IMG/VR virus record: IMGVR_UViG_3300037246_002669
Coordinates: 30,913 to 94,912 of that record
Source: a virus
Direction: 5' to 3' (one strand)
DNA: 64,000 nucleotides
A program made the translations under genes and the position numbers. Under the pieces are notes generated by a model. It did no database searches. It was not told the DNA's origin and worked only from the letters and a program-made list of their open reading frames with translations. This document shows, in pieces, positions 6,112-32,172 of this stretch. Numbering within the stretch: the first letter of the stretch is position 1; each line of letters starts with the position of its first letter.

Positions 6112-7089
6112 TTATTGCAAATAACTCGCAACTGTTGCCCCAAGTCCTTCCGTAAATCCTACCTGCGGGCGATATTTGAGTTGATCTTTGGCCTTATAGA
6201 TATCAGCCTTGGAATGTTTGATATCCCCGATTCTATCCGATGTATGTTCGAATTTCCGGTCAACTCCAGTTATGCTGGAAATGGCAGACACAAGGTCATT
6301 CAATGTATGAGATTCTCCCATAGCAATATTATAGGATTCTCCACTGGGTAACCCTGCTATTGTCAGCATAGCTTTGAGATTTGCGTGAACTACATTGTCC
6401 ACATAGGTAAAATCGCGGGACTGTTTTCCGTCTCCATGGATCTTAAACTTGTAATCCCCATCACGGCACGCCCGGATGATTTTGGGAATCACGGCAGCGT
6501 ACTCGGACTGGTCCGACTGTCGGGGACCAAACACATTGAAGTAACGCAAACACACTGTGGACAGTCCATGCATCTTCCAGTACATGTGCATGTACTCTTC
6601 AGATATGCACTTCTGCGCGGCATAGGGTGTTTTGGGGTTGAATGGCAGGGTTTCCATTTTGAATTCACAGTCCACATCTCCATACACCGAAGAGGACGAA
6701 GAGAACACAACTCTCTGCACTCCTGCAGACTTACAAGCATGCAATAGGGCAAGTGTACTTGTGGAGTTCGCCTTGTGGCTGTCCATGGGTTCCACAATGG
6801 ACCTGGGAACCGAACCCAATGCAGCTACATGAAATACATAGCGACATCCGGACACTGCCAGTGCCGTGGCAACTTCATCTTCCACGTTGCCTATAATCAC
6901 TCGGGGAGAGGAAACATCAAGTCTTTTTCCGTCCTCGCCCATCATTGCAGCCTCGACGTTCTCCATACTTCCGGTGGATAAATTGTCCAGTATGACAACT
7001 TCATATCCATACTTCAGCAAATGGTGCACCAAATGAGAGCCAATGAACCCGGCCCCTCCGGTAACGAGAACTTTTATATTATCACTCAT
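6112..7089 (-). CDS. NAD-dependent epimerase, WbpP-type UDP-GlcNAc 4-epimerase (extended SDR)
   Basis: VLVTGGAGFIGSH Rossmann motif, AALGSVPRSI, SSSSVYGD, YAAQK (YxxxK), LRYFNVFGPRQ..YAAVIPK, GDGKQSRDF, GDIKHS. These closely parallel WbpP. Start moved to MSDNIK (GAGGA RBS). Confidence 0.9.
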   Translation of the reverse strand: MSDNIKVLVTGGAGFIGSHLVHHLLKYGYEVVILDNLSTGSMENVEAAMMGEDGKRLDVSSPRVIIGNVEDEVATALAVSGCRYVFHVAALGSVPRSIVEPMDSHKANSTSTLALLHACKSAGVQRVVFSSSSSVYGDVDCEFKMETLPFNPKTPYAAQKCISEEYMHMYWKMHGLSTVCLRYFNVFGPRQSDQSEYAAVIPKIIRACRDGDYKFKIHGDGKQSRDFTYVDNVVHANLKAMLTIAGLPSGESYNIAMGESHTLNDLVSAISSITGVDRKFEHTSDRIGDIKHSKADIYKAKDQLKYRPQVGFTEGLGATVASYLQ

Positions 7090-7091
7090 CT

Positions 7092-8021
7092 TTATCCTCT
7101 TTTCCATGTATCGGCCCACTCTCGAATGTCGTAAATGGCCTGTTTCTTGATATACTCGCGGTGTTCTCCACATTTACGAGTTACTTCCTCCAATACGGAA
7201 CGGTGATGTCGGTTACTTCCACGCATACTGTCCGCGTGCTTTGCCGCCAAGGACTTTCCACCAAAGAGGTAAGTGGCGATAAGGCGATTTCTGTTAAAAT
7301 CATCGGCATTCCACGAGTATCCCCTTTTCTCCCCGTGGTGGTGCAATGGAAGAGAATTAACGATCCACTTCCGCATCCCGAGAACTGCCATGGTAAAGTT
7401 AATGAAGTTTTCCCCACCTCCATAGATGCCAAACTCCGGGTGCCATCCACCTAACTTCTCATAAATGGAACGGTGCATCATCATACCGCAGGTACTCATG
7501 CAGGGCACTTCTGTAACGGAATTGCCGGGATCTCTGAAACTGCAGAAAGTATAATGGAAGACTCCCTCATTCCTTTTATCCACGAGAGAATACTGCAGCC
7601 GCTTCTCCTCCATGATGTGATAAGTTAAGGGCAAATGGAAGGTGCCATTCATGTAATACTTTTTGTCACTCAGGTACGCATGGAACATGTTCCGCAAGAC
7701 TCCGCGTGGGACATAGCAATGAGCATCACAAAACCAGAATACATCACCGGTTGCATGTTGTATGGCAAAGTTCTTTGCTTGCCAGTGAGACAACTTGTCG
7801 GTATACCGGAGGTTGATGATGTTCTTGTGTTGCCTTTTTATCTCCTCCATGTAAGGCCAGCACCGATCAGACTCCCTGCCGATATTGGGACAGTGAGAAT
7901 TATCAACTGCAATCAACTCCCACTCAAAAGGAGCCTCCCTCAGTTCCTCGATTATACTACGCAAGGTGAACGGAAGAACTGGCCACTCGTTAGCGTAAGG
8001 CACTATCACTGATAGTTTCAA
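7092..8021 (-). CDS. GT-A glycosyltransferase (GT2/GT27-like) with polypeptide GalNAc-transferase-like motifs
   Basis: SVIVP..NE, VDN, KN.AIQHATGD, a DAHC (DxH) metal motif, and GGWHPEFGIYGGGEN resembling the WGGEN Gal/GalNAc-T motif. Confidence 0.85.
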   Translation of the reverse strand: MKLSVIVPYANEWPVLPFTLRSIIEELREAPFEWELIAVDNSHCPNIGRESDRCWPYMEEIKRQHKNIINLRYTDKLSHWQAKNFAIQHATGDVFWFCDAHCYVPRGVLRNMFHAYLSDKKYYMNGTFHLPLTYHIMEEKRLQYSLVDKRNEGVFHYTFCSFRDPGNSVTEVPCMSTCGMMMHRSIYEKLGGWHPEFGIYGGGENFINFTMAVLGMRKWIVNSLPLHHHGEKRGYSWNADDFNRNRLIATYLFGGKSLAAKHADSMRGSNRHHRSVLEEVTRKCGEHREYIKKQAIYDIREWADTWKRG

Positions 8022-8427
8022 AATTTGCTCCTCCTTTTCTTAATCCTCTCAACTGCAGCAGGGCAGCTTTGAATGCGGGAAATCCCATTATAAGGGAGGG
8101 AGTTCCCAGTGCAGCAATATCTTCAATGCGAAGTGATGCAAAATGCACTACAGTTGTCTGAATACCCCTTATCTGATAAGGAGCCATGTACTTTCCTTTG
8201 TGATACTTTAGGAAACCCTTACTTTTCTTGTAGTGCCCGTAATAGTCAATTGCAAATGAAATTTCATGGGGATGTACTTCGCCAATTTTCTTCCCGAATG
8301 CAGTTACGGCAAGTTTTCCCTGGCGCACGGATAGCATCTCCACTTTGCCAAGTTTCCCAGTAGCAATACCGTCAATTATCATGTTTTCCAGTTTCTGCAG
8401 ATACTCCTCGAATGACATGGTATTCAT
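7990..8427 (-). CDS. Hypothetical protein within the glycosylation cluster
   Basis: ORF between two GT genes. AAGGAG RBS before MNTMS. Confidence 0.6.
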   Translation of the reverse strand: MNTMSFEEYLQKLENMIIDGIATGKLGKVEMLSVRQGKLAVTAFGKKIGEVHPHEISFAIDYYGHYKKSKGFLKYHKGKYMAPYQIRGIQTTVVHFASLRIEDIAALGTPSLIMGFPAFKAALLQLRGLRKGGANFETISDSALR

Positions 8428-8441
8428 TAGATTTACTCCTT

Positions 8442-30895: not shown

Positions 30896-30898
30896 TGT

Positions 30899-31177
30899 TT
30901 AGATCCCCAGTGCATTTTGAGTAGGTCGTCCGCTTACATTCTGCCCTACTTCCGCCAGCGCATTCTCTTCCGGCCCGTAGGCTTCCTTCGGCAGGTTCAC
31001 CGGAGCCGGTTCAGGGATCTCAGCCTTGAAGACAGGTTGCCCGTTTTCTCGTAAACGCAACAAAGCCTTTGCTTCTTCGTCTGTAACTTCCTGAGAATGA
31101 CCCCCAGTGAAGTTGATCTTCCGGGCGGGAAGCATCATGATACGCTTGTCGTTTGTCAGCAGTGTAACTTTCGGCAT
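30899..31177 (-). CDS. Small head-module protein
   Basis: ORF directly after the capsid gene with a purine-rich RBS. Confidence 0.6.
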   Translation of the reverse strand: MPKVTLLTNDKRIMMLPARKINFTGGHSQEVTDEEAKALLRLRENGQPVFKAEIPEPAPVNLPKEAYGPEENALAEVGQNVSGRPTQNALGI

Positions 31178-31209
31178 AACTCTATTCCCCCTACAATTGG
31201 AACTTTAAC

Positions 31210-32172
31210 TTACGTAGTCGTGGTGGTGGCACCGAGGGGGTTCAGCCCGATACACTTGACCACAGCATCGACTTCCTCGTACTTCACGTCGAGACGCATG
31301 GTAAGAACGACGATGAGAACACGGGCACGGATGTCACGGTCGGTTTCCATGGAGATCTTTCTCTGTACACCCATGATCAGGTTCTTCGGGTGGGTAAAAA
31401 GAAAACTGTTATCGGGCATGAGCGCCACATCCCGCAGGGGAATGCCGAAGGGAGAGTTGCCCTGCCAGTCGGACTTGACATTTTTGTCACCGAGGGTACT
31501 GAGCCTATCGCCCAGGTAATCCGCGTACTCCAGTTCCGTTGCCGGGGAGGAGAAGAAGGACATCTTTTTTCTGTTGCGAAGATATTTGTTCGGCATCGCA
31601 TGAATGCCTTCTTTAAAGACCGCCCTGGAGATAGCCACGGGGGAAGCGGAATAATCCACCACATGACTTGTGGCCTGTTTGAGCATACCGTCCAGAAGGG
31701 CAAGGTAATCATCGAGGGAGTCGGTATCACCGAGGAGAAGGAGTTCTTCGAGATCCAGAGCGGCACGCTCCGCGATCAGGGACATGATGGTATCTTCGAT
31801 GTTACCTCGTTCGATGTTGTCTTCCAGAACATCATAAGGAATGTGAACTTCGGCGATAACTTCCTTGGTAGTTAGTTCCACCTTATCGGTGGTGGGAGCG
31901 GAGCGGTCACCGGAAGCGAGGGCAGTGCCTGAAACCGGGGCCTTCTTCAAAATCCTCTGTCCGAAGCCGATCTTGTTGATCTGCATCTGGGGAGAATTCA
32001 TGGGAACGGTGCGAATCTGGTTGATGAGCGTGGGCTGATCAATCAGCATCCTGAGAAAGGTGTTGGTTTGGGCGGGGTTAAGGTAACCGCCATTGGATAC
32101 GAGCTGACTTACCGCCAAATCCGCTTTCTCAACTGCGGAACGGGCGTTGACGATGGTAAGGTTGGTAGACAT
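31210..32172 (-). CDS. Major capsid protein (PBSX XkdG-like, HK97 fold) with C-terminal TTTTT
   Basis: GGYLNPAQ, LEDNIERG, AALDLEELLLLGD, LDGMLKQA, FTHPKNLI and RLDVKYEE motifs. Strong codon bias. Confidence 0.9.
   Translation of the reverse strand: MSTNLTIVNARSAVEKADLAVSQLVSNGGYLNPAQTNTFLRMLIDQPTLINQIRTVPMNSPQMQINKIGFGQRILKKAPVSGTALASGDRSAPTTDKVELTTKEVIAEVHIPYDVLEDNIERGNIEDTIMSLIAERAALDLEELLLLGDTDSLDDYLALLDGMLKQATSHVVDYSASPVAISRAVFKEGIHAMPNKYLRNRKKMSFFSSPATELEYADYLGDRLSTLGDKNVKSDWQGNSPFGIPLRDVALMPDNSFLFTHPKNLIMGVQRKISMETDRDIRARVLIVVLTMRLDVKYEEVDAVVKCIGLNPLGATTTTT

Follow-up and report, generated by a model that had tools for sequence, protein, structure and literature searches.

Downstream of the virion genes in a 64,000-nucleotide stretch of viral DNA, referred to here as the window, lies a cluster of genes for a sugar-nucleotide epimerase and three glycosyltransferases (GTs), and six proteins encoded in the same stretch carry runs of threonine. 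The window comprises bases 30913–94912 of a single virus record of 94,912 bp (IMG/VR record IMGVR_UViG_3300037246_002669; 96% complete according to CheckV), and all positions given below are those of the window. Cluster and tracts are likely, in our judgement, to belong to one system, in which a phage cassette would O-glycosylate the poly-Thr tags of the phage's own virion proteins in the host cytoplasm.

Carrying every gene in the region is the minus strand. The order on the head side is a head protease, a scaffold-like protein, an HK97-type capsid protein, an adaptor, the tail tube and the tape measure protein; after the tape measure come the distal tail proteins, a giant Cys-rich protein, a LamG protein, the sugar cluster and a family-A DNA polymerase. 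By megablast, 24 kb of the region has no match among GenBank phages.

Poly-Thr tracts on six virion proteins

Translated in all six frames, the complete 94,912-bp genome yields 43 runs of at least four Thr residues, all on the minus strand and all within six open reading frames (ORFs), compared with a mean of 2.6 in 100 mononucleotide shuffles; for runs of at least five residues the corresponding values are 42 and 0.14. As the tracts mix all four Thr codons, they are not simple DNA homopolymers or microsatellites, and it is the protein sequence that is being maintained; tandem units of 24, 27 and 78 bp within the tracts indicate that they also grow by duplication. The tract reaches the stop codon on the capsid, adaptor and tube proteins and on two small proteins, and the LamG protein has stalks.

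The HK97-type major capsid protein (31210–32172; phrog_1623, E = 1e-104), whose protein cluster carries Pfam PF05065, ends in five Thr residues. The head–tail adaptor Ad1 (30308–30895; phrog_477, E = 2e-12) has a C-terminal tail with two Thr runs, and its homologues in relatives likewise end in Thr/Ser tails. Encoded at 29909–30295 is a protein of 128 residues with no family match, in which eleven Thr runs extend to the stop codon after a basic, Gly/Ser-rich part of about 35 residues; its gene has an AGGAG of its own 8 nt upstream of the ATG, and a homologous small gene with a Thr tail follows the adaptor in four relatives (L083, L088, L090 and L097). Three further runs are located in the C-terminal tail of the major tail (tube) protein (27943–28551; phrog_807, E = 2e-26).

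The largest number of runs, 19, is found in the 446-residue LamG/ConA-like protein (12032–13372; Pfam PF13385, E = 1.4e-15), in which a Thr tract at the N-terminus precedes the LamG/ConA-like domain and a stalk of about 140 residues leads from there to a small C-terminal domain. The stalk is built of the repeat T5–6-(V/I/L)(A/P/G)(P/G), and the LamG part has PHROG matches to baseplate or virion structural proteins. Overlapping the stop codon of this gene is the start of the sixth ORF (11610–12035), the 141-residue product of which has a 75-residue N-terminal part and then seven Thr runs to the stop codon, with no family match in Pfam or PHROG. A preliminary description of this DNA had placed Thr tracts on six virion-module proteins, including the capsid, adaptor, tail tube and LamG proteins, and the sugar cluster directly downstream of virion and lysis genes. 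The six-frame translation and the PHROG and Pfam assignments bear out the former; of the latter, the adjoining virion genes stand, and lysis genes were not identified in the PHROG search, in which the small ORFs at 10676–11305 gave no informative family match.

Within positions 30293–30310, the TAG stop codon of the adaptor and the Thr-rich small gene lie in the same frame, four codons apart. The same frame relationship is found in L083, L090 and L097, and in L088 the two are in frame with an extra stop codon between them. Read-through of the adaptor TAG as the source of the 128-residue ORF was considered and is unlikely, as other relatives use other frames or extra stops and the small gene has its own AGGAG.

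The GT27-like enzyme

At the centre of the proposed system is a 309-residue glycosyltransferase of the GT-A type (7092–8021, minus strand, as for all genes described here). Its Pfam matches are to GT2-type domains only (PF00535, Glycos_transf_2), and it contains neither a lectin domain nor a membrane anchor. The AlphaFold2 model, calculated with 40 homologues (predicted local distance difference test score, pLDDT, of 94), comprises a single GT-A domain followed by C-terminal helices.

A Foldseek search of the PDB returned polypeptide N-acetylgalactosaminyltransferases (ppGalNAc-Ts, family GT27) as all of the top ~48 matches. In an independent comparison of structures, all against all, VIA Z-scores are 26.9 for GalNAc-T1 (285 residues, root-mean-square deviation (r.m.s.d.) of 2.8) and 25.6 for Toxoplasma GalNAc-T3 (280 residues, r.m.s.d. 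of 2.6), and the next structural family follows at 19.3 with 228 residues aligned, leaving a 7-unit gap below GT27. When PDB sequences were searched with a profile of the family, the seven best matches were all ppGalNAc-Ts (E = 7e-8 to 1e-5); a single-sequence phmmer search of the same sequences gave as its top match only a non-significant one, to GalNAc-T10 (E = 0.065). We refer to the enzyme here as GT27-like.

The catalytic motifs follow the same pattern. The D99-A-H101-C motif aligns with DSHC of GalNAc-T10 and PGANT9, the Y200-GGGEN motif aligns with I-WGGE, with Tyr in place of Trp, and the region of H228/H229 (HH(G)) aligns with the VGHIFRKR metal-ligand stretch of PGANT9. Invariant among the 40 homologues are D99, H101, G202, G203, E204 and H228. 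Fold, profile and aligned motif residues thus agree with the earlier assignment of a ppGalNAc-T-like GT-A enzyme made from the DAHC and YGGGEN motifs, and on sequence and model the protein appears to be the closest prokaryotic-virus relative of GT27 found in this analysis.

GT27 enzymes initiate mucin-type O-glycosylation. Shared with the eukaryotic enzymes (human GalNAc-T1, T2 and T10, and Toxoplasma GalNAc-T3) are the GT-A catalytic domain, which superposes over 280–285 of the 309 residues, the aligned DxH motif, (W/Y)GGEN-type motif and distal His metal ligand, and the presumed acceptors, which are Thr/Pro-rich disordered tracts. Unlike them, the phage protein has no ricin-type lectin domain, type-II anchor or secretory setting and would act in the bacterial cytoplasm, and in place of these it has a helical C-terminal extension.

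Tails and enzyme across related phages

Among the closest 120 capsid homologues (60–89% identity), 106 end in a Thr run, 11 in a Ser/Thr-rich tail and 3 precisely at the point at which a tail would start. The GT27-like enzyme is present in 7 of the 26 longer IMG/VR records of this capsid family, in which the number of (ACN)5 matches is bimodal, with 4–69 on one strand in records with the enzyme and 0–3 in those without. The exceptions without the enzyme are three tailed fragments, 37–74% complete, whose contigs may not reach the position expected for the enzyme. Fifty further records were picked solely for carrying the GT27-like enzyme, and all 17 of these that are at least 90% complete have tracts (5–235 (ACN)5 matches). 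Among all records of at least 90% completeness, 19 of 19 with the enzyme have 5–235 strand-specific matches and 8 of 8 without it have no more than 3 (Fisher p = 4.5e-7 and Mann–Whitney p = 3e-5 for the pooled near-complete records, both uncorrected for relatedness). The comparative check proposed in the preliminary description, on whether tails and enzyme are present and lost together, accordingly comes out in favour of the link, with tracts in 19/19 near-complete records with the enzyme and 0/8 without it, and with a joint loss described below.

In the capsid tree, the tailed and enzyme-bearing state occurs in three separate places. The association extends beyond this capsid family: in 33 of the 75 IMG/VR loci that encode the enzyme, co-directional neighbouring ORFs have Thr-tail ends, often three in a row, and such ORFs occur in phages with unrelated structural genes, one of them being a major tail protein.

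What we regard as the most telling case is a relative, G003, whose capsid protein is 69% identical and nested in the tailed clade and whose genome is colinear with this phage from the portal to the DNA polymerase. Its capsid, adaptor and tube proteins are tailless, with Thr tracts at background level, and the syntenic site has no GT domain of any kind and none of the epimerase, GT27-like, GT9 and GT4 genes; the homologue of the small ORF that precedes the GT27-like gene is kept. Comparison of the two genomes shows that in G003 the tails and all transferases were lost together.

Such losses bear on a different use of the cassette, namely alteration of a host envelope glycan (lipopolysaccharide (LPS), capsule or a cell-wall polymer) that would block superinfection or change the receptor, with the Thr tracts serving as unglycosylated spacers or bristles. 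O-antigen and LPS-core pathways do typically contain WbpP-type epimerases and members of the GT2, GT4 and GT9 Pfam families, and serotype-altering phage transferases are well known (PMC12619734). This explanation nevertheless seems to us decidedly improbable, since it accounts neither for the joint gain and loss of enzyme and tails in separate lineages nor for the loss in G003; moreover, no membrane anchor is seen in any of the enzyme sequences, the cassette comes directly after the structural genes in the same direction of transcription, and peptides are the substrates of the enzymes that are closest to the GT-A protein in fold.

The transferases might also glycosylate hypermodified bases of the phage DNA as protection against restriction, the Thr tails then being unrelated. 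Although many phage glycosyltransferases act on hydroxymethylated bases (PMC12619734, in a passage citing Pyle et al. 2024), no thymidylate-synthase-family pyrimidine hydroxymethylase was found in the 95-kb genome, the co-occurrence with tails is left unexplained and the enzyme fold is GT27-like, which together make this extremely improbable. Modification of the Thr tails of virion proteins remains the reading that we favour.

In L104, L108 and their relatives, the capsid protein is ~55% identical and ends in ..TATGTTTY; these phages have no enzyme gene and no other Thr tracts. This capsid end could be a remnant of the tail or a forerunner of it.

Partner enzymes of the cassette

Following the GT27-like gene is that of an NAD-dependent sugar-nucleotide 4-epimerase of the WbgU/WbpP group (6112–7107; Pfam PF01370, E = 1.6e-63). 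The Met at 7107 or 7089 is likely to be the true start, the longest ORF, which extends to 7173, overlapping the upstream gene. Its best solved relatives are WbgU (E = 9e-66), further entries of the UDP-GlcNAc 4-epimerase type and WbpP (E = 3e-57), WbgU and WbpP being matched over the full length, as expected from the first description of the gene as WbpP-like. The protein is a full-length short-chain dehydrogenase/reductase with the Rossmann GxxGxxG (GGAGFIGSH) and YxxxK (YAAQK) motifs, and its 'KHS' aligns with the 'RHS' of WbgU (RHSQAD) with the Ser kept. The Ser of this 'HS' pair we take to be the small gatekeeper residue that permits N-acetylated substrates, S306 in WbpP. The enzyme is likely, judging from these matches, to supply donor by converting UDP-GlcNAc to UDP-GalNAc. 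It shares all these features with the WbgU and WbpP epimerases of O-antigen pathways, and differs in being encoded by a phage, beside putatively protein-directed transferases. An epimerase is found near the GT27-like enzyme in 9 of the 75 related loci, at 25–38% identity, and is thus an accessory of this phage and not part of a conserved core.

The other two transferases, described earlier as a GT9 and a GT4, have the GT-B fold, and both assignments are confirmed by Pfam, the first through a partial match. The GT9-like (heptosyltransferase-type) protein (8442–9200), an accessory, matches part of PF01075 (E = 4.3e-6; 26.7 bits, the cut-off being 22); it has no significant solved sequence relative, and homologues are found in 11 of the 75 loci. 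The GT4-type enzyme (9230–10543; Glycos_transf_1, PF00534, E = 6e-8) likewise has no significant solved sequence relative. Its AlphaFold2 model (pLDDT of 94.7) has a generic GT4 fold, with a top Z-score of 16.3 and with BshA, TarM and MshA near the top of the matches.

GT4-type enzymes start the O-glycosylation of serine-rich adhesins in Gram-positive bacteria, and a division of labour can be envisaged in which the virion is glycosylated with the GT4 enzyme as initiator, the GT27-like enzyme extending or branching the glycan. Pointing in this direction, no other partner gene is linked as consistently: the GT4 gene precedes the GT27-like gene, in the same orientation, in 58 of the 75 loci, and its model matches the protein O-GlcNAc transferases GtfA (Z-score of 13.3) and SdgB (Z-score of 12.7). 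These two are, however, outscored by generic small-molecule and cell-wall GT4 enzymes (Z-scores of 14–16), and it is the GT-A enzyme that is closest to the peptide-directed GT27 family, with a clear gap to other GT-A families. We regard initiation by GT4 as unlikely and return below to priming by the GT27-like enzyme.

Directly upstream of the GT27-like gene is a small conserved ORF (7990–8430) with an internal Met as its likely start and with no Pfam or PHROG match. Its homologues adjoin the GT gene in ~27 of the 75 related loci (for example, L165:10741–11145). As it is kept in the transferase-less G003, it may lie outside the sugar pathway.

A model for virion glycosylation

In the pathway that we propose, the epimerase would raise the pool of UDP-GalNAc from UDP-GlcNAc, the GT27-like enzyme would place the first N-acetylhexosamine on Thr hydroxyls of the tails, and the GT4 and GT9-like enzymes would add further sugars. 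Assembled heads, necks and tails would then carry a dense glycan brush, and variable glycans at the particle surface could serve in shielding, adhesion or stability. Attachment of sugar to the tails, its identity as GalNAc and priming by the GT27-like enzyme are all steps that we infer from the genes. The initiator is probably the GT27-like enzyme, for which GT4 is the alternative; UDP-GalNAc as the donor in this phage is plausible, with the case for and against it about evenly balanced.

Several observations weigh against this model. The GT27-like enzyme is only 14–18% identical to GT27 enzymes, from which it also differs in having neither a lectin domain nor a membrane anchor. Most related cassettes have no epimerase, so that GalNAc may be a peculiarity of the present phage or may not be the sugar at all, and GT4 is as conserved as the GT27-like enzyme, so that either might act first. 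The co-occurrence counts are not phylogenetically independent and represent ~3–4 transitions, not 27, and in G054, a record with the enzyme, the tract count is no higher than in the reversed-pattern control for that record. Among 25 random viral contigs with a long poly-Thr-coding stretch, 24, mostly single-tract fragments, do not encode the enzyme; the sole carrier is the contig with by far the most tracts.

Comparison with known glycosylation systems

Glycosylated phage particles have, to our knowledge, been shown only in a few actinobacteriophages. Virion glycosylation at the C-termini of the capsid and tail-tube proteins is described for the mycobacteriophages Che8, Corndog and Myrna in passages of PMC12619734 and PMC13313380 that cite Freeman et al. 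2023. As far as those passages go, the two systems have in common phage-encoded transferases, the capsid and tail-tube C-termini as acceptor sites and the concept of a glycan-shielded particle, the last two being predictions for the present phage. The transferases of Che8 (AY129330) are gp108, with GT2 and methyltransferase domains, gp109, a weak GT2 match, and gp110, a GT25 enzyme, as assigned with Pfam. Beyond a generic GT-A nucleotide site they are unrelated to the GT27-like family (hhalign probability below 1% for gp109 and gp110), and in Che8 the C-termini of the capsid and tube proteins read ..KTGS and ..SDGS, without a poly-Thr tract. The present system differs further in the long repetitive tag, which is common to six proteins or more, and in that the phage encodes its own putative donor-forming epimerase.

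The glycosylation of serine-rich repeat adhesins by GtfA and GtfB in Gram-positive bacteria is similar in its soluble cytoplasmic transferases encoded beside the substrate gene, in the long Ser/Thr repeats of the substrate and in having a GT4 enzyme as a core component. Its substrates are, however, secreted bacterial adhesins and not proteins of a virus particle, it has no GT27-like enzyme, and the phage GT4 shows no clear preference for GtfA among GT4 structures (Z-score of 13.3, compared with 16.3 for the top match).

No report of a GT27-like phage enzyme or of poly-Thr tags on phage virions was found in the limited collection of literature searched. The preliminary description knew of no phage that combines dedicated poly-Thr mucin domains with a donor enzyme of its own. 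That claim is tempered by the established virion glycosylation of mycobacteriophages, although Che8 has neither the enzymes nor the acceptor motif in common with the present phage. The principle is thus known already; relative to the literature searched, the enzyme family, the tag and the breadth would be new.

Distribution and variability of the cassette

The GT27-like family has at least 850 members in metagenomes, at 45–50% identity, and 75 loci in IMG/VR. Among 185,579 species genomes there are 7 loci, all on contigs of metagenome-assembled genomes and mostly in Desulfobacteraceae/Deltaproteobacteria bins, and a tblastn search of 50,697 GenBank phage records gave one weak match, not to a mycobacteriophage. 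Being common in metagenomes and IMG/VR and rare in genomes and GenBank phages, this is essentially a family of uncultivated phages. Its neighbours in the protein atlas are clusters that are 90–100% viral, together with further bacterial clusters with a Glyco_transf_7C domain.

In relatives, the cassette begins with the GT4 gene and ends with the GT27-like gene, and located between them are variable tailoring genes for further transferases, hexapeptide acyltransferases, methyltransferases and radical-SAM/B12 enzymes. In the present cassette the GT9-like gene makes up the variable part, and the epimerase gene comes after that of the GT27-like enzyme. This changing set of genes between two constant ones suggests that the glycans are diversifying under selection at the particle surface.

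The radical-SAM enzymes lie inside the variable part (L073:6262–7539 and L031:9049–9927), one of them with a B12-binding domain, and hint at unusual sugar or peptide tailoring. Members of the GT27-like family also occur on IMG/VR contigs of jumbo-phage size (L042, L054, L060 and L061; 113–277 kb), where proteins of 1200–1375 residues with 13–35 Thr runs each are encoded directly downstream of the enzyme gene, with 149–235 (ACN)5 matches per record. In a 56-kb viral fragment, an uninterrupted poly-Thr coding stretch of ~300 bp (G094:C1:34523–34824) lies 2–4 kb from two GT27-like homologues (30968–32910).

If the model is correct, virion glycosylation would be common among phages of sediments and waters that are uncultivated and very numerous, as judged from the homologues, of which there are thousands for the tailed capsid and at least 850 for the enzyme. 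A simple sequence tag would predict which particle proteins are modified, and the catalytic design of the animal mucin-initiating enzyme would exist in prokaryotic viruses. A soluble enzyme of 309 residues with a short repeat as acceptor might be put to use for mucin-type O-glycosylation in the bacterial cytoplasm, and the variable cassettes offer a natural library of glycan-tailoring enzymes.

A broader proposal, which we put forward only tentatively, is that many tailed phages in the environment, as yet unrecognised as a group, have a portable module, made up of a poly-Thr tag and a soluble ppGalNAc-T-like enzyme, with which any virion protein can be coated with glycans, that a hypervariable tailoring cassette diversifies these glycans, and that the phage enzymes are a sister lineage from the prokaryotic world, or the source, of eukaryotic GT27. 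Mucin-type O-glycosylation would in that case have a viral or bacterial root, and the phage proteins would provide a minimal cytoplasmic enzyme–tag pair for making mucin-type glycoproteins in bacteria.

Other proteins of the region

A 1260-residue Cys-rich protein without a PHROG match is encoded at 14446–18228 (minus strand), after the distal tail genes and before the LamG gene. Its repeated modules of ~90 residues contain paired Cys residues and a GG.PPY.W-like motif that recurs along the protein, which may serve as a fibre or adhesin. The family-A DNA polymerase (2616–5303, minus strand) has an N-terminal extension of ~200 residues, which in sequence looks like a domain of the uracil-DNA-glycosylase type.

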